Shown here in pieces: positions 14,835-32,318 of a stretch of 64,000 bases of DNA. The translations under genes and the position numbers were made by a program. The notes beneath the pieces are model-generated. The model made no database searches, had not been told where the DNA came from, and saw nothing but the letters and a program-made list of their open reading frames with translations. The stretch lies in the NCBI GenBank assembly GCA_965221605.1, contig CBDCSK010000014.1, positions 241,776-305,775 of the forward strand, written 5' to 3'. Origin of the DNA: Candidatus Aldehydirespirator sp. Its GTDB lineage: Bacteria; Actinomycetota; Acidimicrobiia; Acidimicrobiales; Aldehydirespiratoraceae. Numbering within the stretch: the first letter of the stretch is position 1; each line of letters starts with the position of its first letter.

Positions 14835-14944
14835 CTTGGCACCCTACCCGAGGTCTTCGCCCGGCTCCCGGTGCCCGGGGCTGGCCGCGCCGAAGACGAC
14901 TCGCTGGCCGCGGTCGGCCCGCGCCCCTACTGCATCCCGCGCCC

Positions 14945-16339
14945 CTACTGCATGCGGGCGGCAAGGGCGGTCTCGCCGCCGACGATCTGCAGGATGTACA
15001 CCGGCGTGTCGGGGGTGCCGTCGGTGCCGGCGTAGCCGATCGTGTCGGTGACCGCCTCGACGCCGCTCAGGTTTGCGATCGCCTCGGCGATTTCCCCCGG
15101 GTCGGCGGAGCCGGCCTCGATGAAGCCCTGTATGGCCACGGTGATGGCATCGCCGGCGAGGGCCGCGAAGCCGGGCGCCTCGCTGGGCATGCCCGCGGCG
15201 GCCAGGCCCGCGTTGAGGCGCTCGTAGCGGTTGCCGTCGGCGCCGAAGCCGTGATCGGTCCAGTAGATGCCCTCGTTGTTGGGCATCGCGGTGATGCCGC
15301 TCACCCCGAAGGCGTCTGCGCCGAAGTAGGTGATGGAGTCGATGCCGCGCTCTTCGATGGCGCTCCGCAGAGCGTCGACCTGGGGGGCGATCATGGCGGT
15401 GTAGAGGATCTCGGTGCCGTCGGCCACGCCGACCACCTCGTTGGCCTGCGATGCGAAGTCGAAGTCCTCGAAGGGAACGTAGCTCTGGTCGAGCACGAGC
15501 TCGCCGCCGAGCTCTTCGAACTTGGCCGCGAACGTCTCGGGGTTGTAGCCGAAGTAGGGGCCCTCCGACGAGAACGTGATGGCGCGGGTGATGCCATTGT
15601 CGATGGCGAACTCGGCCGCGGCCTCGGCCTGCTGGGTGTCGCTGAACGTCGTCATGAACGAGTAGATCGACGGATCCGGCAGCACCGGCTCGGTGGAGGC
15701 CACGAAGATCACAGCCCTGCTGGCGTTGACCGTCTGCAGCACCGCGTCGCCGGTGTCGGCGAACGGCGGGCCCAGGATCACATGGGCGCCGGCGTCGATC
15801 AGGTCGGCGGTGGCCCGCTGCGACACCTCGGGGTCGCCCTGGACGTCCTCGATGACGAACTCGACGGGATGCCCGTTGACGCCGCCCGCGCAGTTGATCA
15901 GGTCGACGTAGTACTTGCCGGCCTCGGAGATCGGGATGTCCGCGAACCCGCCCACCTCGGACAGATCGGCCGCGAAGCCGATGATGAAGGGATCGCCGCT
16001 CGGCGCGGGGCCGCAGTTGTCGAGGTCTGCGTCGAGCGCGGCGTCGACGTCGAAGCCGGCCATCGCCATGTCGTCGTCGTGCATCTCGTCGTCGTGCATC
16101 TCGTCGTCGTGCTCGTGGCCATCGTCGTCGTCGTGCTCGTGGCCATCGTCGTCGTCGTGCTCGTGGCCATCGTCGTCGTCGTGCTCGTCGTCAGCCGCAG
16201 TCTCCGGCTCCTCCTCCACCGCGGGAGCGGCCGTGGTAGGAGCGGGTGCCTCGGCGGCGTCGTCCTCGTCGTCGCCGCAACCGGCAGCGACCAGCGCGAG
16301 CACGGCGAGCGAAGCGACGAGCAGCTTGTGAAGTCTCAT
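14945..16339 (-). CDS. ABC substrate-binding lipoprotein (LivJ-like) with a His/Asp-rich linker
   Basis: ATG 16339; lipobox AAGC; INCAGGVNGHPVEFVIED periplasmic binding motif; heads the operon. Confidence 0.88.
   Translation of the reverse strand: MRLHKLLVASLAVLALVAAGCGDDEDDAAEAPAPTTAAPAVEEEPETAADDEHDDDDGHEHDDDDGHEHDDDDGHEHDDEMHDDEMHDDDMAMAGFDVDAALDADLDNCGPAPSGDPFIIGFAADLSEVGGFADIPISEAGKYYVDLINCAGGVNGHPVEFVIEDVQGDPEVSQRATADLIDAGAHVILGPPFADTGDAVLQTVNASRAVIFVASTEPVLPDPSIYSFMTTFSDTQQAEAAAEFAIDNGITRAITFSSEGPYFGYNPETFAAKFEELGGELVLDQSYVPFEDFDFASQANEVVGVADGTEILYTAMIAPQVDALRSAIEERGIDSITYFGADAFGVSGITAMPNNEGIYWTDHGFGADGNRYERLNAGLAAAGMPSEAPGFAALAGDAITVAIQGFIEAGSADPGEIAEAIANLSGVEAVTDTIGYAGTDGTPDTPVYILQIVGGETALAARMQ
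16070..16192 (-). repeat. Coding tandem repeats giving (HEHDDDDG)n and (EMHDD)n
   Basis: About three 24-nt units and two 15-nt units, in frame. Confidence 0.9.
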
Positions 16340-16958: not shown

Positions 16959-18374
16959 TCAGGCGCTGGCGTCGATCAGGTCCCAGAGCGCTTCGACATG
17001 GGCTCGGGCCGTCCAGGTGGAGCCCACCGAGACACGGGCGTAGCGCATCCCGTCGGCTGTCGAGGCGGTGATGTAGAACCGCCCGTCGTCGTTTATGCGA
17101 TCAACCAGCGCATCGGTAGCCCCGTTGCCGTCGACATGGGCGAATGACACCAGCGCGAACGGCGTGGGTGCGATGGTTGTGAGCTTGCGATGGGCGTCGA
17201 TGCGGTCAGCCAGCTCGCGGGCCCAGGCGACGTGGGTGCGGATCATCTCTCGCAGGCCCGCCGCACCGAAGCAGCGCAGCACGAACCACAGCTTCAGCGC
17301 CCGGAACGGCCGGCCGAGGGGACCGTGCCAGTCCCGGTAGTCGATCACCCGCCCGGACTCGGACGCGTCGTCGCGCAAGTAGGGCGGCAGGACGCTCAGA
17401 GCCTCGATGAGCGGCCGGCGGTCGGCCACCCACATCACCGAGCAGTCGAGGTTCGTGGCCAGCCACTTGTGGGGGTTGAACGTGTAGCTATCGACCAGCT
17501 CCAGACCGTCCTGGTGGTGGCGGAACTCCTCGCAGGTCATGGCCGAGCCCGCGTAGGCCGCGTCGACGTGGTGCCACATCTGCCCGGCCCGGGCGATCTC
17601 GCCGAAGCGGCGCACCGGATCGACGCCGGTGGTGCCGGTGGTGCCCACCGCCGAGCACACGAAGGCCGGGACGAGCCCGGCCCGGCGGTCCTCGGCAACG
17701 GCCGCGGCGAGCGCGTCGGGTCTGGCCGCGAACTCTCGGTCGGTCGCCAGCAGCCTGATGTGCCCGTAGCCGGCCATGCGGGCACCCTTCTCGATCGAGG
17801 AGTGGGCGTGACTCGACGTGTAGGCGACCATGTCCTTCGGGCCGGCTCCGCTGCGCAGCAGGCACTGCTCGCGGGCCACTACCAGCGCGGTGTGCGTCGA
17901 GGCCGACGCGCCCGACTGCAGCACCCCTCCGCCCGCACCTGTCGTCTTCCACTCCTGGGGCACGCCGAGGAGATCGACGAGCCAGTCGAGCACGTGGGAC
18001 TCGATCTCTGTCGCGGCCGGCGACGTCGACCACAGCATTCCCTGCACGCCGAGGCCGGCTGCGGCCAGCTCGCCCAGGATCGCAGGGGGCGACGACTGGG
18101 CCGGGAAGTAGGCGAACCATCCCGGGTGCTGCCAGTGGGTCAACCCCGGGACTACCACCCGCTCCAGGTCGGCGAGGACGGCATCGAAGGCCTCGGGATC
18201 CTCCGGTGCGCGGCCGGGCAGTTTGGCCCGCACGTCGCCCGGTTGCGCGGGCTCACGCACCGGTCGATCCTCCAGACCGCCGAGGTAGTCGACGACCCAG
18301 TCCACGAGCGCATAAGCGTTGCGCCGGAACGCTTCAAGATCGAGGGGGTCGCTATCCAAGTCGCCGCCCCTCAC
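16959..18374 (-). CDS. Aromatic L-amino acid decarboxylase (group II, PLP-dependent)
   Basis: PGLTHWQHP, WSTSPAATEIE, HVDAAYAG, FNPHKWL (PLP lysine), GRPFRALKLW. Confidence 0.92.
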   Translation of the reverse strand: MRGGDLDSDPLDLEAFRRNAYALVDWVVDYLGGLEDRPVREPAQPGDVRAKLPGRAPEDPEAFDAVLADLERVVVPGLTHWQHPGWFAYFPAQSSPPAILGELAAAGLGVQGMLWSTSPAATEIESHVLDWLVDLLGVPQEWKTTGAGGGVLQSGASASTHTALVVAREQCLLRSGAGPKDMVAYTSSHAHSSIEKGARMAGYGHIRLLATDREFAARPDALAAAVAEDRRAGLVPAFVCSAVGTTGTTGVDPVRRFGEIARAGQMWHHVDAAYAGSAMTCEEFRHHQDGLELVDSYTFNPHKWLATNLDCSVMWVADRRPLIEALSVLPPYLRDDASESGRVIDYRDWHGPLGRPFRALKLWFVLRCFGAAGLREMIRTHVAWARELADRIDAHRKLTTIAPTPFALVSFAHVDGNGATDALVDRINDDGRFYITASTADGMRYARVSVGSTWTARAHVEALWDLIDASA

Positions 18375-19306
18375 CCAGCGAGGCGGGCGCAGTAGTCGAC
18401 CATCCGCCGGCAGATGGCGGGCACCTCGCTGATGTCGTCGGTGTACTGCGACGGCTTCATGCAGAACAGCGTGTAGCCGGCTGCGACCTGCTCATCGATG
18501 GCTGCCATGGCGTCATCGACGTCCGCGACGGCGTCGGGAGCGGCGAAAGTGGCCCGGGTGCCGCCGATCAACTCGATCTCGGAGATGTCGCGGCCCGCGG
18601 CCGCGAGACCCTGCGCCAGTTGGGCGAGATCCTCGGCGGTGGGGGCCCCGAAGGGGTGAAAGCCACTGCCGTAGCGGGCCATGCGGCGGATCAGAGCCGG
18701 GTGCATCCACTCGCCGCCGAACCACATGCGAGGACCCTCGGGACGCCAGGCCTTCGGCTCGCAGTACGCGTCGGTGAAGCTGAAGTAGCGGCCCTCGAAG
18801 CTGGCGGGTGAGCCGGCCCAGAGCCGCGACATGGCCTCCAGGTGCTCGTCGAGGATGCGGCCCCGCTCCGAGAAAGGCACACCGTGGGCCTCGTACTCGG
18901 CCTGCTGCCAGGACACGGTGGGCTGCACCACCAGCCGGCCCTCGCACAGCAGGTCGATGGTGGCGAGGTCCTTGGCCAGCAGGATCGGGTGCCGCAACGG
19001 CGGGATGATGGCGCCGGCCACCACCCGTACCCGGTCGGTGGCCGCGGCTACCGCGGCCAGGCTGGCCACCGAGCTGGGCCAGGGCGTCATCGGGTCCTGG
19101 TTCCCGATGGCGGCGTACATCCGGGGATTGCTCATCAGCCCATCGATGGCGGCATGGGGGCCGAGCATGGTCTGCTCACTCACCATCACCGCGTCGAAGC
19201 CGCTGTCCTCGGCCATGCGGGCCAGTTCGACCATTCCCCGCATGTCGCGGGGATCGAGCATGGTGTGGTTCTCGGTGAGGATCATCAACATCTGTGGCGG
19301 CGCCAT
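18371..19306 (-). CDS. LLM class oxidoreductase, probably F420-dependent
   Basis: ATG 19306; AEDSGFDAVMVSE, PLRHPILLAKDLATIDLLCEGRL; paralog of 31178-32128. Confidence 0.85.
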   Translation of the reverse strand: MAPPQMLMILTENHTMLDPRDMRGMVELARMAEDSGFDAVMVSEQTMLGPHAAIDGLMSNPRMYAAIGNQDPMTPWPSSVASLAAVAAATDRVRVVAGAIIPPLRHPILLAKDLATIDLLCEGRLVVQPTVSWQQAEYEAHGVPFSERGRILDEHLEAMSRLWAGSPASFEGRYFSFTDAYCEPKAWRPEGPRMWFGGEWMHPALIRRMARYGSGFHPFGAPTAEDLAQLAQGLAAAGRDISEIELIGGTRATFAAPDAVADVDDAMAAIDEQVAAGYTLFCMKPSQYTDDISEVPAICRRMVDYCARLAG

Positions 19307-19307
19307 G

Positions 19308-20066
19308 TCAGCGCTCGACCATGTCGAAGGGGCCGAGGGCGACCGCGCCGCCGTCGAGGCGGAATGACACTCCGGTAGCAAAACGGCCAGCCGGGGCCAC
19401 CAGGTAGTGCACGAGCGCCGCGATCTCATCGGGTTCCCCGGCCCGGCCCACGATGTTCACGGACACGCCGGCCGCGTCGAGTTCGCGGATCACACCGCTG
19501 GCCATCGGCGTGTCCACGATGCCTGGGGCGACTTGCGTGACCCGGATCCCGTCGTCCCGCCACTCCTTGGCCAGCGCCACCGTGACCGCGGCCAGCCCGG
19601 CCTTGGTCGCGCCGTAGACGGCACCCCCAGCGGAGGGCCTCACGGCGTCGACCGAGCCGATCATCACCACCGCGGCCTCCTCGGCTGCGGCCAGATGCGG
19701 ATGGGCCAGCTGGCAGAGCCGGAGCGGCGCCCACAGGTTGAGCCCGACCAGCCCGTCGAAGTACTGGCGGTCCAGCTCGCCCAGCGGGAGCCAGTCGCCC
19801 CGGCCCGCGTTGTTCACCAGGATGTCGAGCCCGCCCAACTCGGCGACGGCCCCGTCGATCACCCCGTCGACGGCGGTGGCATCGCTCAGATCGGCGGCAA
19901 GGGGTCGTACCGAGCCCTCCGCCTCGGGCACCCGTCCCGACCGCGACACCGCGACCACATCGGCGCCCGCACCAGCGAGCCGGGAGGCGATGGCCGCCCC
20001 GATGCCAGCCGACGCACCGGTGACCACGGCGCGGCGGCCGGTCAGGTCGAAAGCGGTATCAGGCAC
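19308..20066 (-). CDS. Short-chain dehydrogenase/reductase
   Basis: TGASAGIG, NNAG, YGATK. Start is GTG 20066 (TATCGT -10 hexamer 6 nt upstream, possibly leaderless) or ATG 20090. Confidence 0.9.
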   Translation of the reverse strand: MPDTAFDLTGRRAVVTGASAGIGAAIASRLAGAGADVVAVSRSGRVPEAEGSVRPLAADLSDATAVDGVIDGAVAELGGLDILVNNAGRGDWLPLGELDRQYFDGLVGLNLWAPLRLCQLAHPHLAAAEEAAVVMIGSVDAVRPSAGGAVYGATKAGLAAVTVALAKEWRDDGIRVTQVAPGIVDTPMASGVIRELDAAGVSVNIVGRAGEPDEIAALVHYLVAPAGRFATGVSFRLDGGAVALGPFDMVER

Positions 20067-20204
20067 CGCGACACGATAGCTATGCGACATCCATGCGTGG
20101 ATGCCCGGGGAGTCTCGGCTAAGGCGTTGCTGAGCGTATGCCTGTCATACCCACTTGCGAACATGTGTCTGCAAGCAGGTATCCCCCACACGCAGGGCGG
20201 CACG

Positions 20205-21869
20205 ATGTCAGACTGCATTCAAGTGACACTCATCGACCAAGAGGCATGTCCACAGGCCAACGCCGAGGACGGGCCCTGCAGTGAGCATGACCTTGCCCAT
20301 GCTGCTTGGTCAATCGTCCGACAGGGCGGCCTTGCCGAGCTCTCGGAGCCCGAGTCCATACTTGTCCGTGCGCTGACCAGTGCCGAACGCGACTCTGACG
20401 ACGACGGATTGATCCATCTGATCCGCTCCGGCCGCGATCCTCTGGGTGACGCGCTCATGCGCATGCGCTCGCCTGATCAACGCAGACCGCTGGGTGCCAC
20501 CTACACACCTCCCGAGATCGTGTCCTCAATGGTTGGCTGGATTGTCGAGCACTCAAGGCCAGACCGCGTAGTCGATCCTGGAGCCGGCTCGGCGCGATTC
20601 CTTCTGACTGCGGGCCGCGCCTTATCCGATGCTCGCCTCGTCGGCGTGGAGATCGACCCACTGGCAGCGCTGCTTGCCCGTGCCAACCTCACGGCCATGG
20701 GCCTCGACCATCGATCGCAGATCCTGGTGCGGGACTACCGGGACGCCGATCTCGGCGAGTGCGGTGGCACCACGGCCTTCATCGGGAATCCGCCCTATGT
20801 TCGCCACCACCAGATCGAGCCTAAATGGAAGAAATGGCTCGCTACCAACTCGACCGCTCTTGGACTCAAGGCCAGCGGTCTGGCCGGATTGCACGTTCAC
20901 TTCATGTTGGCGACGGCCCTTCATGCCCGACCTGGCGACCTTGGTGTGTTCGTGACGTCGTCGGAGTGGCTCGATGTGAACTACGGCCACTTGCCAAGAA
21001 CGCTGTTTACGACCCAACTCGGCGGAGTGTCAATCCACTTGATCGATCCGCGCGAGGCGCCGTTCGCCGATGCGGCCACAACGGCAGCCGTCACGTGCTT
21101 TCAGGTAGGCGGGCCTGCTGCGTCGATCCGCATGAAGCGGGTTCCTAGCACTTCCGAGCTAGGCATGCTCGATGGAGGGCAACCGTTCAGTAAACGACAA
21201 CTGCGCTCCGCGTCGAGGTGGTCGCCCCTGCTCAACGGCTCACAGAAGCCGCCTGAGGGTTACGTCGAACTTGGAGAAATCTGTTGCGTTCATCGGGGTG
21301 CCGTGACAGGCGCCAACGCCACTTGGATAACCGACGCCAACGATCCCGCTCTTCCTTCAGAGGTGCTCTTCCCCTCCGTCACACGCGCGGTCGAACTGTT
21401 CGGTGCAACTGACGGCATCCTCTTGGACACGCACGGCTTAAGGGCAGTGATCGACCTGCCGGCCGATCTCGACGTGCTCGACGAGGCTGACCGTCCCCGC
21501 ATCGACCGGTTCCTGCGAGCCGCGGAGCGCGGCGGGGTCCGTTCCGGCTACATCGCTCGTAACCGCAAGCCTTGGTGGGCCGTGGGTCTACGGTCTCCTG
21601 CTCCAATCCTCGCGACCTACATGGCGCGTCGGCCACCGGCATTCGTTCGCAACCTAGCTAGCGCCCACAACATCAACGCCGTACACGGCATCTACCCCCG
21701 AGAACCAATGCCACACGCAACTCTGGACGCACTGGCAGGTGCTCTGCGCGCCGCGGCACCCACTGCGGTCGGACGTACCTATGCAGGTGGCCTACTCAAG
21801 TTCGAGCCTTCGGAGATGGCACGCATCTACGTCCCAGGCCCAGCCATGCTCCGGGAAACGGCGGCATGA
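20205..21869 (+). CDS. N6-adenine DNA methyltransferase (gamma class, M.XamI/Eco57I-like)
   Basis: GATYTP, VVDPGAGSARF (motif I), GNPPY (motif IV), GRTYAGGLLKFEPSE. Start uncertain; ATG 20205 preferred. Confidence 0.88.
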   Translation: MSDCIQVTLIDQEACPQANAEDGPCSEHDLAHAAWSIVRQGGLAELSEPESILVRALTSAERDSDDDGLIHLIRSGRDPLGDALMRMRSPDQRRPLGATYTPPEIVSSMVGWIVEHSRPDRVVDPGAGSARFLLTAGRALSDARLVGVEIDPLAALLARANLTAMGLDHRSQILVRDYRDADLGECGGTTAFIGNPPYVRHHQIEPKWKKWLATNSTALGLKASGLAGLHVHFMLATALHARPGDLGVFVTSSEWLDVNYGHLPRTLFTTQLGGVSIHLIDPREAPFADAATTAAVTCFQVGGPAASIRMKRVPSTSELGMLDGGQPFSKRQLRSASRWSPLLNGSQKPPEGYVELGEICCVHRGAVTGANATWITDANDPALPSEVLFPSVTRAVELFGATDGILLDTHGLRAVIDLPADLDVLDEADRPRIDRFLRAAERGGVRSGYIARNRKPWWAVGLRSPAPILATYMARRPPAFVRNLASAHNINAVHGIYPREPMPHATLDALAGALRAAAPTAVGRTYAGGLLKFEPSEMARIYVPGPAMLRETAA

Positions 21870-22792
21870 GTCCCGCCGAGCCCCCTAGGTGGAACGACCA
21901 ACAGTTCGAGGAACAACTAACGGTCGCCAAGGCTGCATTCTGCGAAGAGAGGCTTCGCGAGCCGACGGAGCAGTACCGCGAGGTCTTCGACGACTACGCA
22001 GCGCGTGTCAGAGCTCTATTGGCCCGGACAGATCACCTGACGAACTGGTCCGACGTTCTCGAGACCGTCCTCAGCGACGAAGTAGGCCTCGATGCTCTGA
22101 GATATGTGGCAGGTCCACCGATCTCTGCGGATGACCTCAAGACCCTGGCAGACGCTTCGCTCGCTCCCGGCCGGCTGCGCCGCGATCCTGAGATGACATC
22201 CAGGGTCCTCGGCGTCGTGCTCACCAGTCTCGATACCAAGCGATTCCCGTGGGTGGCGGAACAGCGTCTCCCCAATCCAGAAGAACGGCAGGCAGCGACC
22301 GTGGCCTCGGCGAGTCTCATGGCCACCCAGCGCGTCCAGACCGACAGGAAGAACCTCGCAAAGACCAAACAGGAGAGGCAAGTAGCGGACTATCTGTCTG
22401 ATACCGGCCTAACGCATGTCGGACCGAGAGACATCACGACGAGCGACGATGCACCGGAGCGAGGCTCGTTCTGTGGAGAGTGCGTGTTCGGAGACCGCAA
22501 GGCCGATCTCGTCGTGCGACTTCACGACGGACGCCTCATGCCCATCGAATGTAAGGTCTCGAACTCGGCGACGAACTCCGTCAAGAGGCTCAACAATGAC
22601 GCAGCTATCAAGGCTGAGGCTTGGATTAAGCAGTTCGGCACGCTTCAGACCGTCCCGACTGCCGTACTGTCAGGTGTGTTCAAGAGGCACAACCTCATTC
22701 AGGCGCAGGAGGCGGGGCTCACGATCTTCTGGGCACACGATCTGAATCCACTAGGCGAGTTCATAGGGTCCACAGCAGAGTTGGCTCAATAG
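21866..22792 (+). CDS. XamI family restriction endonuclease
   Basis: PPRW, LRYVAGPPISADDL, RKADLVV...MPIECKVSNSATNSVKRLNNDA; coupled to the MTase by ATGA. Confidence 0.85.
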   Translation: MSPAEPPRWNDQQFEEQLTVAKAAFCEERLREPTEQYREVFDDYAARVRALLARTDHLTNWSDVLETVLSDEVGLDALRYVAGPPISADDLKTLADASLAPGRLRRDPEMTSRVLGVVLTSLDTKRFPWVAEQRLPNPEERQAATVASASLMATQRVQTDRKNLAKTKQERQVADYLSDTGLTHVGPRDITTSDDAPERGSFCGECVFGDRKADLVVRLHDGRLMPIECKVSNSATNSVKRLNNDAAIKAEAWIKQFGTLQTVPTAVLSGVFKRHNLIQAQEAGLTIFWAHDLNPLGEFIGSTAELAQ

Positions 22793-23015
22793 TTGGAGTT
22801 GACGCGATGGCGGAAGCGACGTGCCCTTCCGCGATGCTCCTGTCGCCCAAGATCAAGGCGTCAACGGTTGCAGCGCAGGGGAAATCGACAGCCCTTTACA
22901 TGATTTGACATGCTGTTTCGTAAGTGCCAAGATGATCTAGAGCGCTCATCCCCTGCGAGACCCGCCTCGTCGGCCACTACGGTGCTCAAACCCCGCTGAA
23001 AAAGGGAACTGCCAC

Positions 23016-24080
23016 GTGATCCACCTTAGTTCACACCCAGTTGCGGCGATAGACCTCTTTTGCGGCGCGGGCGGACTCTCGTATGGCCTAGCGGCAGCCG
23101 GCGTGAACGTCCTTGCTGGCGCCGACATCGATCCATCCTGTCGATACCCCTTCGAGGCGAACATAGCGGGCGCAAGGTTTCTCGAACGCGACGCCCGCCT
23201 CCTTGCCCCTGAGGAACTCGCGGAGATCTGGCCTCAAGACTCCCTCAGGCTCCTAGCGGGCTGCGCTCCGTGCCAGCCCTTCTCTCCTTACCAGCGTGGC
23301 CGCGGGACGCCAAGTGACTCTCGATGGTCCTTGCTTCGCGAGTTCGGTCGCTTGGTGGGGGCCACACAGCCAGAACTTGTGACCACGGAGAACGTGCCCC
23401 GATTGATGGGCACGTCAGTCTTTCAGGCCTTCCTTGAACTCTTGCGTGAACTCGACTATTCGATTGCGTACCGCACATGCAACTGTGCCGACTACGGCTT
23501 GCCACAGAAGCGTCGGCGATTAGTGCTCATTGCATCTAGGCTCGGACCGATAGACATCCCAGAGGGACACCTCTCACGCTTACAGCCCCGAACGGTAGGA
23601 GACGCCATTCGTCGCTTGCCGCCTATTGCGTCCGGAGAGGCTAACGCCGCCGATCCGCTTCACCGCAGCCGAACGTTGCAGGAGATCAATAGACGGCGAA
23701 TTCAAGCATCAGTACCAGGCGGAAGTTGGCAAGATTGGCCTGAGGACTTACGAGCTCCGTGTCATCGTCGGGCGACCGGCAGAAGGTTCAAGAATGTGTA
23801 TGCGAGGATGTCATGGGATGAACCAGCACCCACACTTACCACCTACTTTTATAACTACGGTGCTGGACGGTTCGGTCATCCTGAGCAAAACCGAGCCATT
23901 TCAATACGAGAAGGCGCTATCTTGCAAGGGTTTCCGGCAGATTATGACTTCGTGAAACCTGGCTCCTCGCTTAGCCTAAACACTCTCGGCAGACTCATCG
24001 GAAATGCTGTTCCTCCACCGCTTGGAGCAGCAATTGGCAGAGCAATCATCGACCATATCAGAGGAATATACAACAAATGA
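23016..24080 (+). CDS. C5-cytosine DNA methyltransferase (M.HgiDII-like)
   Basis: DLFCGAGG, GCAPCQPFS, ENV, QKRRR, GRFGHPEQNRAISIRE, IGNAVPP. The variable region PGGSWQDWPE...VYARM resembles M.HgiDII as recalled. Confidence 0.9.
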   Translation: MIHLSSHPVAAIDLFCGAGGLSYGLAAAGVNVLAGADIDPSCRYPFEANIAGARFLERDARLLAPEELAEIWPQDSLRLLAGCAPCQPFSPYQRGRGTPSDSRWSLLREFGRLVGATQPELVTTENVPRLMGTSVFQAFLELLRELDYSIAYRTCNCADYGLPQKRRRLVLIASRLGPIDIPEGHLSRLQPRTVGDAIRRLPPIASGEANAADPLHRSRTLQEINRRRIQASVPGGSWQDWPEDLRAPCHRRATGRRFKNVYARMSWDEPAPTLTTYFYNYGAGRFGHPEQNRAISIREGAILQGFPADYDFVKPGSSLSLNTLGRLIGNAVPPPLGAAIGRAIIDHIRGIYNK

Positions 24081-26101
24081 CCGAAGATCACTTGTACACG
24101 ATGTCTGTAGATCTCGCAATAATCGAGTCTCTAGGAATCAACCTCTACAGCAACGCGGCTGCCGTCCTCTCAGAGTTGGTGGCGAATGCACACGACGCTG
24201 ATGCCACACATGTGAGAATTGCGTGGAAGACAGATGATGATAAAGATGTTGTCCAGGTTGTCGACAATGGTTGCGGGATGAACCTCAACGACATCAACAA
24301 CAAGTTTCTTGTGACCGGATACAAGAAACGACAAGTCGAAGGTAGCCATTCGCAACGCTGGCAGCGGCCCTACATGGGCCGGAAGGGCATCGGCAAGCTC
24401 TCTGTCTTTTCGATTGCACGAGATGTACAAGTCTATTCGACAACAGGCAACGAAGGTAGCCTCGGATTGAGAATAGAGATTGAGAAGCTAGAGGAACGTA
24501 TTCGGGCGAAGAAGGAGTACCACCCGGAACCCATAGAGGTTCCAGAGGAGTATCGTAGTGAAGGCACAGTAATAGTCCTCAGGGACCTAAAGCGGAAGCG
24601 TGCAGACCTAACCGTCGCGGCCTTGCGCAAGCGATTGGCCAGACGCTTCGACATCCTCGATCCGACACCGGAAGCAGAGGGTGGCTTCAAGATCTACATC
24701 AACGACGCCCAAGTTACTTACGCTGACCGCCAAGAACTGAAAAAGCTAGAGTACATCTGGGAATTTGGTCAGCCCACGCTCCCCGAATCGGCACTGCCTG
24801 GTGACATTACGAGGTACACCCTCAATGACCAACTTCCTCCGCCCTTTGATGACGAGGCCGTTGGCGGTTGGTTCGGCACGGCCCGTGTCCCGTCGGACCT
24901 GACGGAGGATGAGGAGGCTGGCTCACTCAAGAACATCATCGTTATTGCGCGGAAGCGGCCTATTCAGGAGGGAATTGTTGACAAATTAGACTTCTCGCGT
25001 GTCTTTGGCAACTACGTTACCGGCCAAATCGAAGCCGATTTCTTGGATCAGGATGATGAGGAAGATATCGCGACCAGTGATAGGCAACGGCTCATCGAAG
25101 ACGATCCACGCGTCAAGGTACTCCAAGCCTTCCTCAGAGATGCATTTCAAAGCGCTTCTCAAGTATGGAACCGGGAGCGGCCGAGGAGGAAGGCTAAGGA
25201 AGTCCTTGCAGACAATCCGAGCCTAAGGCAATGGGTTGATGGACTACCTGAATGGCAAAGGGAACCAGCCGAGAAGCTAATCGGCACGATCGCAGCACTA
25301 CCTATGGAGAAGGGAGTTGAACAACAACAACGAAGGGCACACCTGTTCCGTGCAGGTATCCTTGCCTTTGCTCGCATTGGCTTGAGGGAAACAGTCGATG
25401 AACTCTGCGCTCTTAGTGACCTCAATGCTGATCAGCTTCTTGAACTCTTAGGAGCCCAGGATGAGTATGAGGCGGCGCTGTGGGTGGATATCCTGAGATC
25501 GCGAGTTGAGGCTATCCGACAATTCGAGAATTTGACGGAGATCGACGAAAAGGAAAGAGTCCTCCAACAACATCTGTTCGGTCATCTCTGGCTCTTGGAC
25601 CCATCATGGGAGAGGGCAACCACGGACCCAAAGATGGAAGAGGATCTACGGAGTATCGATCCTGATAGCTTTCCCATTGATGCAGAAGGGAAGGAGATTC
25701 GTGGCCGTATCGACATTAGATACGCGAAGACTAGCGGCCTACATGTCATCGTTGAATTGAAACGATACTCGGTCAAGCCGAAGATCGAAGACCTCGTGGA
25801 GCAGGGCCGCAAGTATCGAGCGGCTCTCAGTGATATTCTAACTCGGCAACGGCGAGGTCACGAGAAAATCGAGGTCGTGTTCGTAATAGGTTCCGATCCC
25901 CGGGTGTCGGATCGAGGTAGGTTTCATTCAGACGACGATGCAATCGATCATTCGCTAGATGCCATAGCAGGACGATATGTGCTGTATGATGAATTGATCG
26001 CTAATGCATGCAACCAATATGACGATTACTTCCACGCCACCAGGCACGCGCAAGGCTTGGAGGAAGTCTTGAATTCACTCATCTTGAACGCTCCCGAATA
26101 G
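24077..26101 (+). CDS. GHKL ATPase plus PD-(D/E)XK restriction endonuclease (HgiDII/BbrUII-like)
   Basis: ELVANAHDADA, DNGCGM, GRKGIGKLS, GT (Bergerat fold); HLWLLDPSWERAT; GRIDI...VELKR nuclease motif; coupled to the C5 MTase. Confidence 0.8.
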   Translation: MTEDHLYTMSVDLAIIESLGINLYSNAAAVLSELVANAHDADATHVRIAWKTDDDKDVVQVVDNGCGMNLNDINNKFLVTGYKKRQVEGSHSQRWQRPYMGRKGIGKLSVFSIARDVQVYSTTGNEGSLGLRIEIEKLEERIRAKKEYHPEPIEVPEEYRSEGTVIVLRDLKRKRADLTVAALRKRLARRFDILDPTPEAEGGFKIYINDAQVTYADRQELKKLEYIWEFGQPTLPESALPGDITRYTLNDQLPPPFDDEAVGGWFGTARVPSDLTEDEEAGSLKNIIVIARKRPIQEGIVDKLDFSRVFGNYVTGQIEADFLDQDDEEDIATSDRQRLIEDDPRVKVLQAFLRDAFQSASQVWNRERPRRKAKEVLADNPSLRQWVDGLPEWQREPAEKLIGTIAALPMEKGVEQQQRRAHLFRAGILAFARIGLRETVDELCALSDLNADQLLELLGAQDEYEAALWVDILRSRVEAIRQFENLTEIDEKERVLQQHLFGHLWLLDPSWERATTDPKMEEDLRSIDPDSFPIDAEGKEIRGRIDIRYAKTSGLHVIVELKRYSVKPKIEDLVEQGRKYRAALSDILTRQRRGHEKIEVVFVIGSDPRVSDRGRFHSDDDAIDHSLDAIAGRYVLYDELIANACNQYDDYFHATRHAQGLEEVLNSLILNAPE

Positions 26102-26203
26102 AACCGCACTGCGAAGGAACCACAACGACCGCCGGGTGAGTAATCCCACTAGATCGCAGTTCCGTACTTGCGGGTAGATGCGACATCGACGTACCGGGTT
26201 GAT

Positions 26204-26219
26204 CGTTCGGTGCCAAACT
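26204..26219. promoter_or_regulatory. Putative MarR operator, site 2
   Basis: CGTTCG-GTGC-CAAACT next to a TAGGCT -10 hexamer upstream of the ADC-family gene. Confidence 0.6.
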
Positions 26220-26233
26220 AATAGGCTCGGAGG

Positions 26234-27046
26234 ATGGCCGAGCTCCAGGGGTTCATGTACCCGCGGACTCCGTCCGGGATCGCCGGAATCGTGCCCGGGC
26301 CGCCGTGGCACTACTCCGGCGACATGCTCACCGTTGAGTACCGCACTGATCCGGGCCGGGTGACCGACCTGCTGCCCGAACCCCTGGAGCCGGCCCCCGA
26401 CGATCCCGGCGCGGTGGCCATGGTCTGGGCCGAATGGCAGAGCTGCGGCGACACCTTCGACGAGCTGCTCGACCCTGTGCGAGCCCAGTACCGGGAGGTG
26501 TTCGCGGTGGTCCGCTGCCAATTCGAGGGCGAGACCTACAGCCGGGCCGCCTACATCTGGGTGGACAAGGACTTCGCGATGGCCAGAGGCCACTTCCAGG
26601 GCTACCCCAAGAAGATGGGCGAGATAGCCATGACCCGGCCGGTGACGGTGGGCCGGGCCGGACCCCGCCTGGAGCCGGGCGGCCGATTCGGAGCCACGCT
26701 GAGCACCTGGGGCCGGCGCGTCGCCGAGGCCCGCTTCACCATCACCGGCACCGCCGAGACCCCTGGCTTCGTGAACGGCCATCCGATGCTGCACAGCCGA
26801 CAGATGCCGGCCATGGAGGCCGACGGCACCGACTCGCTCGACGAACTGGTCACCATGCGGGGCTACGACGCCGACCTCGGCCCGGTGTACTCGGGCGACG
26901 CCGATCTGGTGCTGCCCGAGTGCCCCACCGAGGAGCTGCACCGCCTGGAGCCCGTCGAGATGATCGGCGGCTACTACCGCCAGGTCGGCCTGTCCATGGC
27001 CTCGGGCACCACCCTGTGGGCCGCCCCCAACCCCCGGGCCGGGTGA
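26234..27046 (+). CDS. Acetoacetate decarboxylase family protein
   Basis: GPPWHY, LLPEPL, YIWVD, RGHFQGYPKK (catalytic Lys motif). Confidence 0.85.
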   Translation: MAELQGFMYPRTPSGIAGIVPGPPWHYSGDMLTVEYRTDPGRVTDLLPEPLEPAPDDPGAVAMVWAEWQSCGDTFDELLDPVRAQYREVFAVVRCQFEGETYSRAAYIWVDKDFAMARGHFQGYPKKMGEIAMTRPVTVGRAGPRLEPGGRFGATLSTWGRRVAEARFTITGTAETPGFVNGHPMLHSRQMPAMEADGTDSLDELVTMRGYDADLGPVYSGDADLVLPECPTEELHRLEPVEMIGGYYRQVGLSMASGTTLWAAPNPRAG

Positions 27047-28323
27047 TGGGCCCGACAGCCACATTCGTGGACGGCTACCTCGACGACCACGGTGACGACG
27101 AAGCCGACCTTTCGTCGCACGACTCGTTCACCTCCGGTGTGCCCCACGCCACCTTCACCCGTCTGCGCCGCGAGGACCCGGTCCACTGGACCCCCGAGTC
27201 CGAGGGATCCGGCTTCTGGTCGATCACCCGCTACCACGACGCCCTGGCCGTCAGCCGCGACGTAGAGACCTTCACGTCCTCCCGGGGCATCCGCCTCGAG
27301 GAGATGGACGACGACGAACTCCGGGCCCGGCGCACCATGATGGAGCTCGACCCGCCGGAGCACACCCGGCTGCGCCGGCTGGTCAACCGGGGCTTCACCC
27401 GCCGCACGGTGGAGTCCTACGAGGACGCCATCCGGGCCCTGGCCGCCGAGGTACTCGACGAGGCTCTGACCGCCGGTGCTTTCGACTTCGTCACCGAGGT
27501 GGCCGCCAAGCTCCCCATGCGCATGCTGGGCCGCCTATTGGGCACCAGCGACGAGGACGGGCACCAGCTGGTCGAGTGGGGCGACGCATTCCTGGGCAAC
27601 AGCGACCCGGAGTTCACCACCCACGTCGTGGACACCGCCGACACCGAGGAGTTCCGGCTGATGCCGTTCCGCAGCCCCGCCGCGGCAGAGGTGTTCTGCT
27701 ACGCCGAGGAGCAGGCGGCCGAGCGCCGGGCCTGTCCCCGCGACGACGTGATCAGCCAGCTGCTGGCCCCCACCCGCGACGGCGAACCCCTCAGCGACCT
27801 GGAGTTCAAGAACTTCTTCCTGCTGCTCATCGCGGCCGGCAACGACACCACCCGCTACACCATGACCCACGGGCTGCGCACGATGATGCAGCATCCCGAG
27901 CTGTGGCGGGCCTGGCGGGCCGACCCGTCACTGACCGAGACCGCCGTCGAAGAGGTCCTGCGCACCAGCGCGGTGACCATGCACTTCCGCCGCACCGCCA
28001 CCCGGGACGTGACCGTCGGCGAGAAGCGCATCGCAGCCGGCGACAGGGTGGTCATGTGGTTCTGCTCGGCCAACCACGACGACGGCGGCTTCGCCGACCC
28101 CTGGCGATTCGACCTGGCCCGGAACCCCAACGACCACATGGCCTTCGGGCGCAACGGCCCCCACCTGTGCCTCGGCGCCTGGCTGGCCCGCATGGAGGCG
28201 CGTCTCGTGTACGAGGAGCTGATGAAGCGTGTCGACCGGCTCGAGCCCGACGGCGAGCCCCGGTACCTCCGCTCCAACTTCATCGCCGGCATCAAGCACC
28301 TGCCCGTGAGAGTGGTGGCCTGA
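27046..28323 (+). CDS. Cytochrome P450
   Basis: DPPEHTRLR, AAGNDTT, EEVLR, FGRNGPHLCLG. Confidence 0.95.
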   Translation: MGPTATFVDGYLDDHGDDEADLSSHDSFTSGVPHATFTRLRREDPVHWTPESEGSGFWSITRYHDALAVSRDVETFTSSRGIRLEEMDDDELRARRTMMELDPPEHTRLRRLVNRGFTRRTVESYEDAIRALAAEVLDEALTAGAFDFVTEVAAKLPMRMLGRLLGTSDEDGHQLVEWGDAFLGNSDPEFTTHVVDTADTEEFRLMPFRSPAAAEVFCYAEEQAAERRACPRDDVISQLLAPTRDGEPLSDLEFKNFFLLLIAAGNDTTRYTMTHGLRTMMQHPELWRAWRADPSLTETAVEEVLRTSAVTMHFRRTATRDVTVGEKRIAAGDRVVMWFCSANHDDGGFADPWRFDLARNPNDHMAFGRNGPHLCLGAWLARMEARLVYEELMKRVDRLEPDGEPRYLRSNFIAGIKHLPVRVVA

Positions 28324-29183
28324 TGGGATCGATCGTCGGCGCCGCGGTCGTGTCGCACGTCCCGCCGCTGGTCATGCCCGAGCACGAGCGCCGGGCCCTC
28401 AACGGCGGGGAGGACACGTCGCTGTTCGCGGGCCTGCACGCGCTGCGAGCCGAACGGCTGGCTCCGGCCGTGGCCGACACCGTGGTGGTGGTCGACACCC
28501 ACTGGTTCACCACCATCGAGCACATCGTCTCGGCCCACGAGCGGCGCAAGGGCGTGTTCACCTCCGACGAGCTGCCCCGGGGCATGAGCGCCATGCCCTA
28601 CGACATGCCGGGCGATCCCGAACTGGCCCACGCCTTCGCGGCCGCAGCCGACGGCCGGGACGACACCTGGGTGACCGCGGTCGACGATCCCCACCTGCCG
28701 GTGCACTACCCCACCATCAACCTGCTCGGCTTCCTGCAGGGCGACGAGCGCTGGATCTCGATGGGCGTGTGCCAGACGGCCGAGCCCGACGACTTCCTGC
28801 TGGCCGGCGAGCTCCTCGCCGCCACAGTGGCCGGACTGGACCGGCGGGTGGTGATCCTGGCCAGCGGCGGGCTCAGCCACCGGTTCTGGTCGCTGCGCCA
28901 GTTCCGCCGCCATGAGGGCGCCGATCCCGACCTCCACATCCGCACCCCCGAGGCCGCTGCGGCCGACCGCCGGGTGCTGGGCTGGATGGCTGAGGGCAAC
29001 CATGCGGCCATCATCGACTTCCTGCCCGAGTACTCACGCCACGCCCCCGAGGGGTACTTCGGGCACTACCTGACGATGGTGGGCGCGCTGGGGGGAGCGG
29101 CCTGCACCGCGAAGGGCACCCAGTTCGGCCAGTACGAGTCGGTGTCGGGCACGGGCCAGGCCCACGTATGGTTCGACGTGTGA
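28323..29183 (+). CDS. LigB-family extradiol dioxygenase (HpaD-like)
   Basis: SHVP, DTHW, PGDPELA, ASGGLSHRFW, GTGQ; ATG 28323 coupled to the P450. Confidence 0.85.
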   Translation: MGSIVGAAVVSHVPPLVMPEHERRALNGGEDTSLFAGLHALRAERLAPAVADTVVVVDTHWFTTIEHIVSAHERRKGVFTSDELPRGMSAMPYDMPGDPELAHAFAAAADGRDDTWVTAVDDPHLPVHYPTINLLGFLQGDERWISMGVCQTAEPDDFLLAGELLAATVAGLDRRVVILASGGLSHRFWSLRQFRRHEGADPDLHIRTPEAAAADRRVLGWMAEGNHAAIIDFLPEYSRHAPEGYFGHYLTMVGALGGAACTAKGTQFGQYESVSGTGQAHVWFDV

Positions 29184-29905
29184 CTCGACCGAAGCGGGCC
29201 CTGGTGCTCGCCCACGAGCCGCAGGGCACCAGCGCTCTGGTGGGTGAACGCCTGCAGCAGCGCGGCTACGACGTGCACGACCACGTGGTGACGGCCGACC
29301 TGGACCGCCCCAACGACGCGGTTCCCTTCCCCGACTTCGCCGACTACGACCTGGTGGTGCCGATGGGCTCGGTCCGGTCGCTCACCAACACCGGCGAGAT
29401 CGACAGCTGGATCTTCGACGAGATCGACCGGGTGCGAGCCGCCCATACTCGGGGCACGCCGATGCTCGGCGTCTGTTTCGGGGGGCAGCTGCTGGCCGCG
29501 GCCCTCGGCGGCGAGGTCGAGCAGGCACCCGTGCCCGAGATCGGCTGGTACGACGTGTCGGCGGTGGACGGCACACCCAACCCGGCCGGGCCGGGCCCGT
29601 GGTTCCAGTGGCACCACGACCGCTTCACGCCGCCGCCCGGCGCCGACGTGCTGGCCGTCAACGACAACGCCGTGCAGCTGTTCCGGCTGGGCCGCTGCGT
29701 GGGCACGCAGTTCCATCCTGAGGTGACGTACAACCATGTCGAGAGCTTCCTGACCGGGGCCGACGACGAGTACCTGGCCCAGCACGGTTTGACCCGGGAG
29801 ACCCTCCTCGACGGCATCCGCCGCCACGAGGACCGCAACGCCCGCCAGTGCTTCGCCCTGGTCGACTGGTTCCTCGACGAGGTGGCCCAGAGGCCGAGCG
29901 GGTAG
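29180..29905 (+). CDS. Class I glutamine amidotransferase-like protein
   Basis: LGVCFGGQL, EIGW, WHHD, QFHPE catalytic triad motifs. Confidence 0.88.
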   Translation: MTRPKRALVLAHEPQGTSALVGERLQQRGYDVHDHVVTADLDRPNDAVPFPDFADYDLVVPMGSVRSLTNTGEIDSWIFDEIDRVRAAHTRGTPMLGVCFGGQLLAAALGGEVEQAPVPEIGWYDVSAVDGTPNPAGPGPWFQWHHDRFTPPPGADVLAVNDNAVQLFRLGRCVGTQFHPEVTYNHVESFLTGADDEYLAQHGLTRETLLDGIRRHEDRNARQCFALVDWFLDEVAQRPSG

Positions 29906-29986
29906 GCACGCGAATCCGGCCCAGACGGGCGAGGCCGTGGCCCGAGCGGCCCAGTGAGCGCAGCGAACAAGAGCGGGAATGACACC
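29889..29986 (+). repeat. ~97-bp dispersed repeat, copy 2 (supplies the stop codon of the upstream gene)
   Basis: Aligns to 6783-6880. Confidence 0.9.
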
Positions 29987-30034
29987 GCCGCACCGCGACC
30001 GGCTCTCACGTATCCGCGCGGCCCCTACGTCCTA

Positions 30035-31194
30035 GTGCTCACGCGCGTAAGTCTTGTGGCTGTTGGTTCGGGCAGTAGGTCCATTTGAAGGGTTTGGCTC
30101 GGTTGTTGTAGTCGTCGATGTAGTCGAGGATGGCTCCGGCGAGGTCGCTGGTGTGGGCGAACTCGGCGGTGTGGAGGAGCTGTCGGGTCAGGATGGAGAA
30201 CCACATCTCGATCTGGTTGAGCCAGGATGCGTGGGTGGGGGTGCGGTGCAGGAACACTCGGTGGTGGTCCTCGAGGAACTCCTCGACGGCGGCGGTTGAG
30301 TGGGTGGCGAGGTTGTCGACGATGCAGTGCAGCTCGAGGTGGGCGGGCACCAGGGCGTCGAGTTCTGTGAGGAACGCCACGAAGTTCACCGAGCGGACCG
30401 AGTCGGTGGGCGCGGCGACGACCTCTCCGGTGGCGCACTCGAACGCGGCGAACAGCGCCTTGGTGCCGTTGCGCTGGTACTCGAACTGCTGCTGCGCGGG
30501 GCGGCCCTTGCCGCCGCCGGGGGCGGCGGGCTGCGCCGGCAGGGTCGGGTCGGCGCGGCTTCGGGCCTGTATGCCGGTCTTCTCGTCGACGCTGAACACG
30601 GCCCAGTTGTCCGGCGGCCGCAGGTAGAGGGCGCAGATGTCGGCGGCCTTGTCGTCGAAGTCGGGGTCATGCGACGTCATCCAGGACCGCACCTGCCACG
30701 GCTTGAGGCCCATCGAGGTGCAGATCCGCCAAACCTGCGAGTCCGAGATAGCGATGCCGAGGTCCTCGCGCATCACCCGGGCCACCTCCGGCATCGACAT
30801 GCGCGCCTTGAGCCGGCGCCCGCCGAGCTGGCCCGGCTCGCGCGGGCGGCTCGTGATCGTCTTGACCAGAGCCAGCCGCTCCGCGGGGCCATACACCCGC
30901 GGCCTGCCCGGCCGCGGCCGGTCCCTGAGCCCCGCGAGGCCCTCTGAGGCGTAGCGGCGCCGCCACACGTCCACCTGGTTGCGGTTCAGGCCCACCGCCG
31001 CGCCGATCACCGGCGACGACAGCCCCTCACGGGCCATCAGCACCACCTTGGCCCGCTGCCAGTCACGCCGCGGCGTCGTCGACGCCGCCACCCGCGCCTC
31101 CAGCACCGCCCGATCAGCCTCAGAAACCGCCACTGCCCTCGGCACAGTCATCACAGCATCCTAACACAGCCATATTACTAACGCGAGTATGCAC
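30035..31194 (-). mobile_element. IS630 family insertion sequence
   Basis: Imperfect terminal inverted repeats (CTAGTGCTCACGCGCGTAAG versus CTAGTGCATACTCGCGTTAG); TA duplication at 30033-30034 and 31195-31196 in a CTAG context. Confidence 0.9.
30039..31154 (-). CDS. IS630 family transposase
   Basis: N-terminal HTH, RPGRP, SVDEK...IVDNLATH...SWLNQIE (DDE), KPFKW. Confidence 0.95.
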   Translation of the reverse strand: MMTVPRAVAVSEADRAVLEARVAASTTPRRDWQRAKVVLMAREGLSSPVIGAAVGLNRNQVDVWRRRYASEGLAGLRDRPRPGRPRVYGPAERLALVKTITSRPREPGQLGGRRLKARMSMPEVARVMREDLGIAISDSQVWRICTSMGLKPWQVRSWMTSHDPDFDDKAADICALYLRPPDNWAVFSVDEKTGIQARSRADPTLPAQPAAPGGGKGRPAQQQFEYQRNGTKALFAAFECATGEVVAAPTDSVRSVNFVAFLTELDALVPAHLELHCIVDNLATHSTAAVEEFLEDHHRVFLHRTPTHASWLNQIEMWFSILTRQLLHTAEFAHTSDLAGAILDYIDDYNNRAKPFKWTYCPNQQPQDLRA

Positions 31195-32128
31195 TAGACG
31201 CCCGGGAAACGATGTGCTCGCAGAGGGCCCGGACCTCTCGCGGATCGTCGGTGTGCTGGGAGGGCTTGACGCAGAAGGTGGTGAAGCCGGCCTCGATCTG
31301 GTCGCCGAAGTCGGCCATGGCCCGGTCGATGTCGGCGGTGTCGCCGGAGCCCGAGAACACAGCCCGGGTGCCGCCCACCATCTCGATGCCGCCCGGGTCG
31401 CGGCCGGCCGCAGCCAGCCCGGCCCGCAGCGCGGCCAGGTCCTCCGCGCTGGCCGTGCCGAAGGGATGGAAGCCGTCGCCGTAGCGGACGAGCCGTCGCA
31501 GCAGCGCCGGATGCATCGACTGGCCGCCGAACCACATCCGGGGCCGGGCCGGCTCGGTCCGCCACGGCTTGGGAACGCAATAGACGTCCTCGAAGGCGAA
31601 GCGGGGCCCGGGATGCGAGGCCGGGGTGTGCTCCCACAGAGCCGCCATGGCCTCGAGCTGCTCGTCGAGGATGCGGCCCCGCTCAGCGAAGGGCACGCCG
31701 AGGGCGTCGTACTCCTCGCGGTGCCACGACACCGTGGGCTGCACCACCAGCCGGCCCTCGCTGAGCCGGTCCAGGGTGGCCAGTTCCTTGGCCATCAGCA
31801 CCGGATGGCGCAACGGCGCGATCACCGCGCCCATCACCAGCCGCACCCGCCGGGTGACCGCGGCCACCGAGGCCAGCAGCACGTTGGAGCTGGGCCAGCA
31901 AGTGGCCGGGTCCTGGTTGCCGGGAGCGGCGTAGGCCCGGGGATTGACCGGCCTCCCGAGCGCACCCGCGGAGGGACCGAGGACGATGTGCTCGCTGGCC
32001 ATCACCGCATCGAACCCGGCCGCCTCGGCGTCGACGGCCATTCGTACCAGCCCGACCAGGTCGCCGGGGTCGACCAGCGTGTGGTTCTCGGTGAGGATCA
32101 GCAGCAGCCGGGGCCGCCCCTCAGTCAT
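31178..32128 (-). CDS. LLM class oxidoreductase, probably F420-dependent
   Basis: ATG 32128; AEAAGFDAVMASEH, PLRHPVLMAKELATLD; last codons derive from the IS end. Confidence 0.85.
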   Translation of the reverse strand: MTEGRPRLLLILTENHTLVDPGDLVGLVRMAVDAEAAGFDAVMASEHIVLGPSAGALGRPVNPRAYAAPGNQDPATCWPSSNVLLASVAAVTRRVRLVMGAVIAPLRHPVLMAKELATLDRLSEGRLVVQPTVSWHREEYDALGVPFAERGRILDEQLEAMAALWEHTPASHPGPRFAFEDVYCVPKPWRTEPARPRMWFGGQSMHPALLRRLVRYGDGFHPFGTASAEDLAALRAGLAAAGRDPGGIEMVGGTRAVFSGSGDTADIDRAMADFGDQIEAGFTTFCVKPSQHTDDPREVRALCEHIVSRASSAYSR

Positions 32129-32223: not shown

Positions 32224-32318
32224 AGAGGCCGAGCGAGTTGCGCGCGATCCGGCCCATACGGGCGAGGCCGTGGCCCGAGCGGCCCGTGAGCGAAGCGAAC
32301 AAGAGCGGGAAGCACCCC
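32224..32318 (+). repeat. ~97-bp dispersed repeat, copy 3
   Basis: Aligns to 6783-6880. Confidence 0.9.

Follow-up and report, generated by a model that had tools for sequence, protein, structure and literature searches.

Two adjacent restriction–modification operons with different methylation chemistry in an accessory island of Candidatus Aldehydirespirator: a candidate case of redundant stacking in a chromosomal hotspot

Do two restriction–modification (RM) systems that lie side by side guard the same DNA site, and, if they do, do they act as two separate locks or as a redundant pair? The question is raised by an accessory island at positions 20079..26198 of a 64,000-nucleotide stretch of contig CBDCSK010000014.1 from Candidatus Aldehydirespirator sp. 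(assembly GCA_965221605.1); this whole stretch is called the window below. The source genome comprises 4.31 Mb in 16 contigs at 69% G+C; its nearest named relatives in public records are metagenome-assembled genomes (MAGs) of Acidimicrobiales and 'Candidatus Poriferisodalis/Poriferisocius', and parts of the region are contained in sponge metagenome runs. The island holds four genes only, M1, R1, M2, and R2, all of them intact open reading frames (ORFs) on the + strand, arranged as two pairs of a methyltransferase (MTase) followed by a nuclease, at the positions where a first-pass annotation of the sequence had placed them. That annotation suggested a two-lock module, in which both systems guard GTCGAC, host DNA carries both N6-methyladenine (m6A) and 5-methylcytosine (m5C), and invading DNA with one mark is still cut. 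The explanation preferred here, to which we give an even chance, is a redundant stacking of two autonomous Type IIP RM operons in a hotspot, probably isospecific and cross-protecting.

Gene pairs and their predicted target

M1 (20205..21869, + strand; 554 amino acids) is assigned to the gamma-class N6-adenine DNA methyltransferases by the Pfam families N6_Mtase and Eco57I and by the PADLOC MTase_II model PDLC03222 (630.5 bits). The motif order of this class is seen here, with VVDPGAGSARF (motif I) at residues 122–132, then NPPY (motif IV) at residues 195–198, and a C-terminal recognition region; in the PDB, M1 also resembles M.TaqI (residues 7–216) weakly in sequence. R1 (21866..22792, + strand; 308 amino acids), whose start overlaps the M1 stop, is a Type II restriction endonuclease of the XamI family: it covers positions 9–256 of the 256 positions of Pfam RE_XamI (PF09572) with 137.6 bits at a cut-off of 25, and scores 235 bits with PADLOC REase_II. 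Residues D214, E228, and K230 are conserved in at least 95% of 62 homologues and align with the D and E-A-K of a prototype-like member of the family; R1 is, hence, read as a small PD-(D/E)XK enzyme that would cut the site left unmethylated by M1. The list of R1 homologues contains generic names only, with no REBASE prototype among them, and the same is true for the list of M2 homologues.

M2 (23016..24080, + strand; 354 amino acids) is a C5-cytosine DNA methyltransferase of the M.HgiDII/M.BbrUII type, matching Pfam DNA_methylase (PF00145; 170.6 bits) and TIGR00675 (118 bits), with all C5 motifs present: FCGAGG (I), PCQ (IV), ENV (VI), QxRxR (VIII), and GN (X). R2 (24077..26101, + strand; 674 amino acids) belongs to the BbrUII/HgiDII family of restriction enzymes and consists of a GHKL ATPase, a middle domain, and a PD-(D/E)XK domain. 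It matches the NCBIfam equivalog NF050001 with 761.7 bits (cut-off 550), residues 7–668 aligning with model positions 1–659, and its N-terminus matches Pfam HATPase_c_3 (64.5 bits). All 24 homologues in the alignment agree with R2 at N37, D63, G65, G67, D546, E560, and K562, and a GRKGIGK box is present. The top Foldseek matches of the full AlphaFold model (pLDDT 77.5) are Hsp90, TRAP1, and MORC2 (E down to 2.6e-12), covering the N-terminal two thirds; since this search returned the GHKL part only, the C-terminal domain (residues 485–674, about 25529–26098) was folded alone. This second model (pLDDT 78.5) matches mainly PD-(D/E)XK nucleases: NucS (Z 8.4), AF1548 (7.6), SduA (6.7), and N.BspD6I (6.6), followed by FokI (6.4), LlaBIII (6.3), and McrC (6.1). 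The Z values are middling, the list is consistent, and the motif agrees with it; together, the invariant D546/E560/K562 and the modelled fold support a PD-(D/E)XK nuclease at the C-terminus of R2, as had been proposed.

At both M/R junctions the MTase stop overlaps the nuclease start as ATGA. Each pair can be read from this arrangement as an operon in which the MTase gene is transcribed first and the nuclease is translationally coupled to it. The ratios of non-synonymous to synonymous substitutions (dN/dS), computed pairwise with our own Nei–Gojobori script, range from 0.07 to 0.29 over all four genes, with 0.14–0.29 for M1, indicating purifying selection. The family profiles confirm the earlier assignment of an m6A MTase with a XamI-family nuclease, followed by a C5 MTase with a GHKL/PD-(D/E)XK nuclease, and the data support two complete, apparently functional RM systems with different methylation chemistry.

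The specificity of the M2-R2 pair for GTCGAC is well supported by sequence comparison: the equivalog is named after enzymes of distant phyla, HgiDII of Herpetosiphon and BbrUII of Bifidobacterium breve (both GTCGAC, m5C); M.HgiDII is described as a characterised m5C MTase of GTCGAC (PMC5867850); and the target-recognition domain (TRD) of M2, residues 196–290, is conserved as strongly as the core in 56 other M2-like MTases, most of which adjoin an R2-family gene. These MTases were taken from fetched loci of many phyla and include BbrUII-like, Chlorobium, and Cenarchaeum ones; M2 was compared with the TRDs of the family. M2 would, then, write m5C, and R2 would cut unmethylated GTCGAC. R2 shares with the prototypes full-length similarity above the NF050001 cut-off, a C5 MTase directly upstream with the family TRD, and a GHKL N-terminus, the likeness being one of family profile. 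The island pair differs in that an additional m6A MTase and another nuclease stand beside it. A 2008 survey describes the GHKL N-terminal domain of R.HgiDII and, in its account of this enzyme, leaves the C-terminal domain unassigned (PMC2441816); the corresponding domain of R2 models as PD-(D/E)XK.

For M1-R1, the comparison is at the level of the XamI family. R1 passes the Pfam threshold, has the PD-(D/E)XK core, and is partnered by a gamma-class N6-adenine MTase that aligns end to end and collinearly with the MTases of prototype-like XamI systems, including the C-terminal recognition half. It belongs, however, to a distinct subfamily: prototype-like members of the family score 290–415 bits on the Pfam model vs 137.6 for R1, and identity to their systems is 24% for R1 and 30–32% for M1. 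The site of the XamI prototype is GTCGAC. We consider it somewhat better than an even bet, by family membership, that M1-R1 targets this site as well, in part because random neighbours from families with one shared prototype hexamer are improbable. Thus, the original suggestion that both systems guard GTCGAC is well founded for M2-R2 and, at the level of the Pfam family, plausible for M1-R1. Our literature search returned no paper on XamI and GTCGAC, and a mention of XamI that it did find holds no specificity data. The site is frequent in host DNA, as had been noted: there are 58 occurrences in the window, 4167 in the 4.31-Mb genome, and one in the island.

A further enzyme with this site is SalI of Streptomyces albus G, which is paired with an m6A MTase in the gene order R then M. 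By description, M1-R1 resembles it in being actinobacterial, in a similar protein size class, in the adenine MTase, and in the same presumed site, while the order in the island is M then R. In the 2008 survey, SalI is listed as a 15-member PD-(D/E)XK family (PMC2441816).

Occurrence, gene loss, and allele exchange

The island is accessory and lies in a variable chromosomal hotspot, between a divergent SDR gene on the − strand and an acetoacetate-decarboxylase-like (ADC) gene on the + strand. It is marked off by a G+C content of 0.52–0.63 vs about 0.70 in the flanks and by empty-site contigs from two sponge-metagenome runs, which join 20078 to 26199 across 18 unrelated letters and 20078 to 26216 across 35; these contigs are ascribed to related strains because they matched at 85% likeness. 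Below, G-numbers denote sampled genomes and L-numbers fetched loci, with locus L026 lying in genome G440 and locus L025 in genome G441. Among 24 other genomes of the genus sampled, a XamI-family gene is found in eight and a BbrUII-family gene above the cut-off in two; M1-R1 stands alone in seven of the 24, and in five of the eight it adjoins the same SDR gene (G021, G006, G012, G024, and, partly, G003). The two pairs are side by side in G021 only; in G013, M2-R2 occurs by itself at a different locus. Compared with G006, where 275 bp occupy this position, M2-R2 forms an insertion of 3.4 kb. G012, G024, and L025 carry different cargo at this position, including an AAA_14-DUF4143 ATPase, an unknown ORF, a PIN (VapC) gene, and a Schlafen/AlbA_2 protein.

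On a wider scale, each pair is an autonomous, widespread module. Of the 538 R2-family loci in 185,579 species genomes, the best 80 were surveyed: 41 have an M2-like gene immediately upstream of R2, and 71 lack any M1; M2-R2 alone is common across phyla. An M1-type MTase is present within 8 kb in nine of the 80, and R1 in only two, so that R1 is absent from seven of the nine. All nine are Acidimicrobiia-type records, one of them being a sponge MAG with the flanks of group B (see below) and the label Terriglobia, and among the R2 loci of this survey that come from Acidimicrobiia-type records the M1 type adjoins M2-R2 in nine of ten. The nine loci fall into group A (L025 and L026, with the window's flanks) and group B (seven loci with common flanks unlike the window's). 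Six group B loci have the order M1-M2-R2, with M1 and M2 150–180 bp apart, and contain no remnant of R1; their M1 genes show dN/dS of 0.14–0.23 at dS >1. A survey from the other side started from 545 M1-type loci in metagenome contigs and covered the best 80, 41 of them with at least 3 kb downstream and 35 with at least 3.5 kb upstream: M2 or R2 occurs at none of the 80, and a full R1 is present in 51 of the 68 loci having at least 1 kb downstream. Finally, among 400 other genomes of the phylum, the R2 family is seen in one, the XamI family in 11, and both in none.

The pairing is confined to two Acidimicrobiia lineages; we regard the association as lineage-specific, with M1 and not R1 as its constant member. 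M2-R2 seems to move within this lineage together with an M1-type MTase of its own, as a unit of three genes. Concerning the co-occurrence expected for a two-lock module, the pairing does recur, at the same locus in G021 and L026 and at another locus in L034; each pair is far more often found alone, however, and the conserved partner of M2-R2 is an MTase, M1, rather than a second nuclease.

The four-gene arrangement of L034, a group B locus, appears to have arisen independently of that of the window. Here, M1 and R1 are followed, after 532 bp, by a 3' piece of another M1 copy and then by M2 and R2. This truncated copy shares 84% identity with the M1 of an M1-M2-R2 locus and 71% with the full M1 of L034; the latter groups with a metagenome locus having M1-R1 only (midpoint-rooted FastTree of 102 M1 sequences). 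These identities and this grouping suggest that an M1-R1 cassette replaced most of the resident M1 in an M1-M2-R2 locus. In L025, two M1 copies, 88% identical, flank the PIN gene and the Schlafen-like gene upstream of M2-R2. Homology between M1 copies might be what brings M1-R1 and M2-R2 side by side. In the window itself, a search of the R1–M2 spacer for an M1 remnant found none.

The loss of single genes is tolerated at these loci. In L026, which occupies the window's locus, M2 is split by a 1381-bp insertion sequence (IS; 6450–7830 of this locus) with a two-frame transposase, while R2 (672 amino acids), M1, and R1 are intact. At least seven IS copies at 99–100% identity and further copies at 84–93% identity are present in G440, where the IS is an active element; G440 has one R2-family gene only. 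The state of L026 would be consistent with M1 protecting GTCGAC, and also with polar silencing of R2; for a strict two-lock, a broken M2 with an intact R2 beside an intact M1-R1 is a poor fit, and cross-protection or silencing fits better.

The nuclease R2, in turn, varies between relatives. An approximate recombination breakpoint lies at 23953; past this point, close relatives are unlike in R2 and in the last ~40 codons of M2. Two metagenome contigs (X6 record 18 and X8 record 29) match the window as far as 23953 and depart from it there. In the comparison of the window with G021, dS is 0.10 for M1, 0.095 for R1, and 0.31 for M2, and is saturated for R2 (71% amino acid identity). In two group B loci, an R2 37–38% identical to the window's stands beside an M2 at 62–63%. 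R2 alleles are, thus, exchanged between near relatives.

Three nucleases of the BbrUII/HgiDII family above the cut-off are found in G441, at C1:2396803-2398785, C1:3454817-3456757, and C1:97159-99168, scoring 762, 798, and 659 bits. They are 86, 38, and 31% identical to R2, and each adjoins an M2-like C5 MTase (identity to M2 86, 50, and 47%) in which the conserved TRD is the same; this looks like several diverged nucleases under one methylation code.

Competing explanations

If the two operons are stacked redundantly, in a hotspot of a lineage where such genes abound, M1 would write m6A and R1 would cut the unmethylated site, while M2 would write m5C with R2 cutting unmethylated GTCGAC. Host DNA would be doubly marked at about 4,200 sites, given that M1-R1 is taken to target GTCGAC too, and the two marks would, we infer, at least partly cross-protect, a 'belt and braces' arrangement behaving as one incompatibility group. 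The summary in PMC3874152 describes same-site RM systems as forming one incompatibility group, either of which can be lost without killing the cell, and attributes the incompatibility of isospecific systems and the 'vaccination' by solitary MTases to Kusano (1995) and Takahashi (2002). Under this theory, systems that share both a site and a cell are expected to give up their addictive hold, and genes of either one may then decay, which matches the loss of R1, the IS in M2, and the retained solitary M1; it presumes that the mark of each system shields DNA from the nuclease of the other, while the island presents m6A vs m5C. Since redundancy within one incompatibility group would explain the loss of R1, the broken M2, and the exchange of R2, it is preferred over a strict two-lock.

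In the strict two-lock, both systems would recognise GTCGAC, with R1 blocked by m6A only and R2 by m5C only, so that singly marked DNA would still be cut. We consider this quite unlikely, the least probable of the readings discussed. It has in its favour that the prototypes of both families share one 6-bp site, which is improbable for random neighbours, that the four-gene arrangement arose at least twice (in the SDR|ADC hotspot and in L034), and that all four genes are under purifying selection. In addition, M2-like C5 MTases (45–47% identical) occur in 14 of 50,697 phage records, while no M1-like gene was found in these records, and a second, m6A-keyed nuclease would hence add cover; the phages with M2-like genes, however, infect Proteobacteria and not this lineage. 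Further evidence against the two-lock is given by the absence of R1 from seven of nine loci with the M1 type and M2-R2, by the tolerance of a broken M2 with an intact R2 in L026, and by the finding of each pair mostly alone. SalI is blocked both by its own m6A and by CpG methylation, so that a nuclease cannot simply be presumed insensitive to the other mark; our literature search on the methylation sensitivity of SalI returned nothing usable. A related explanation starts from the three-gene loci: the HgiDII-type system of Acidimicrobiia may be a double-mark module M1'-M2-R2, with both MTases on GTCGAC and the second mark kept by selection, in which the M1 homology arm recruits M1-R1 into a lock of two nucleases and two marks, and deeply diverged R2 alleles are swapped under one code. 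Selection for the second mark might come from the safe establishment of an ATP-using nuclease, from a vaccine effect against the M1-R1 systems widespread in this lineage, or from the defeat of one-mark mimics. We judge such a module unlikely.

The other alternative is that M1-R1 has diverged from XamI to a different recognition sequence, the two systems being unrelated cargo of one hotspot. Here, the low identity of R1 and M1 to prototype-like XamI systems and the far lower Pfam score are to be weighed against the collinearity of M1 with the MTases of these systems, C-terminal recognition half included. Likewise, the hotspot does hold unrelated cargo (VapC PIN, Schlafen/AlbA_2, AAA_14-DUF4143 ATPase), no metagenome M1 locus of the 80 has M2 or R2, and none of the 400 other genomes of the phylum has both families; yet the M1 type adjoins M2-R2 in nine of ten Acidimicrobiia-type R2 loci, at two unrelated chromosomal places, with a tight, conserved spacing of 150–180 bp, and such persistence is unexpected for unrelated neighbours. 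On balance, different sites seem possible but doubtful. Returning to redundant stacking, several observations weigh against it, beginning with the divergence of M1-R1 from the prototypes just mentioned. Clustering in the hotspot and homology between M1 genes would suffice to account for the adjacency, even if the two systems had no link in function. The IS insertion in the M2 of L026 is recent, as at least seven nearly identical IS copies are present in the genome, and R2 there may be silenced by polarity, which makes this locus weak evidence for cross-protection; moreover, G440 has, elsewhere, a second M2-like C5 MTase (41–44% identical) of the same TRD type. The introduction of PMC5829577 terms M.BbrUII an N6-adenine MTase, in conflict with the m5C chemistry of this family in PMC5867850. 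Genome-wide palindrome statistics give no usable avoidance signal for GTCGAC (observed/expected 0.77, rank 18 of 64). Synonymous-codon shuffling shows no avoidance of GTCGAC in M1 genes (14 vs 18 expected) or R1 genes (8 vs 5.6); the R2 genes, used as a positive control, give 128 vs 118, and the M2 genes show some avoidance with 19 vs 34 (z −3.0). As the positive control showed no avoidance, this test lacks the power to identify the site of M1-R1.

Setting of the island and its significance

The flanks of the island comprise, by Pfam, metabolic genes: those for a luciferase-like monooxygenase and an SDR protein on the − strand and ADC-like, P450, and LigB genes on the + strand. Between R1 and M2 lies a spacer (22793..23015, + strand) whose 3' ~120 bp, starting from a TTGACA hexamer at 22905–22910, are conserved upstream of M2 in relatives, as seen in the alignment of the window with G021, L026, and L025; a consensus promoter scan called no promoter upstream of M1-R1 or M2-R2. 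The absence of controller and Vsr genes from the island, stated in the first-pass annotation, is borne out: no controller (C-protein) gene was found, the non-coding gaps of 115 bp (20091–20204) and 223 bp (22793–23015) being too small for one, there is no ORF of at least 80 amino acids on the + strand between the four genes, and no Vsr gene lies in the island, with four Vsr-family genes elsewhere in the source genome. No tRNA genes were found at 17000–32000 and no Rfam families at 19000–31000. The listed runs with the region include no RNA sequencing runs, and a literature search on methylomes of Poriferisodalis or sponge symbionts gave nothing specific.

The source genome has six C5 MTase genes along with the four Vsr genes, M2 being one of two such MTases with no Vsr nearby. 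Outside the window, at 282693–285800 of contig C13, a GHKL-type protein (70 bits with the N-terminal part of NF050001) is accompanied by a C5 MTase and a Vsr gene. The best PADLOC match of M2 is the DrmMII model of DISARM class 2 (328 bits); this assignment was rejected, as the island holds four genes between SDR and ADC and no helicase or DUF1998 gene. DISARM-like operons with R2 homologues (~42% identical) do occur in the proteobacterial loci L047, L048, and L056 (at ~5800–15800 of each). The L048 operon contains, according to Pfam matches of its ORFs, a KAP-family NTPase, the R2-like GHKL protein, a 1321-amino-acid helicase, and a 621-amino-acid MZB/DUF1998 protein; in sister loci, an M2-like MTase lies ~7.7 kb upstream. 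Such a setting differs clearly from that of a simple M-R pair.

Phage MTases of the M2 type are 45–47% identical over 96% of M2 and are carried by Peduovirus P24B2 (L185, 29078–30125) and nine Moraxella phages; in P24B2, which is P2-like, the annotation splits the gene in two, and no R2-like gene lies beside it. Elsewhere in the window, an interspersed repeat of ~130 bp is seen at 29885–30020 and 32224–32351, with at least 40 genome copies at 82–93% identity (243 candidates); it has a very high summed contig depth in sponge metagenomes, and no tRNA or Rfam match. The G+C content dips at 46001–47000 (0.551), 55001–56000 (0.616), and 63001–64000 (0.607), vs ~0.70, and these dips may mark acquired segments.

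Isospecific RM systems with different chemistry in one cell are a natural test of the recognition-site incompatibility rule, and the locus offers natural variants for it: four-gene, three-gene, M1-R1 only, M2-R2 only, and the empty site. The locus family also shows nuclease alleles exchanged under a constant MTase. If the two marks do cross-protect, the locus would show the incompatibility rule at work in nature, in the loss of R1, the broken M2, and the retained solitary M1; if they do not, the two systems would form a layered defence beyond the reach of a mimicking MTase.

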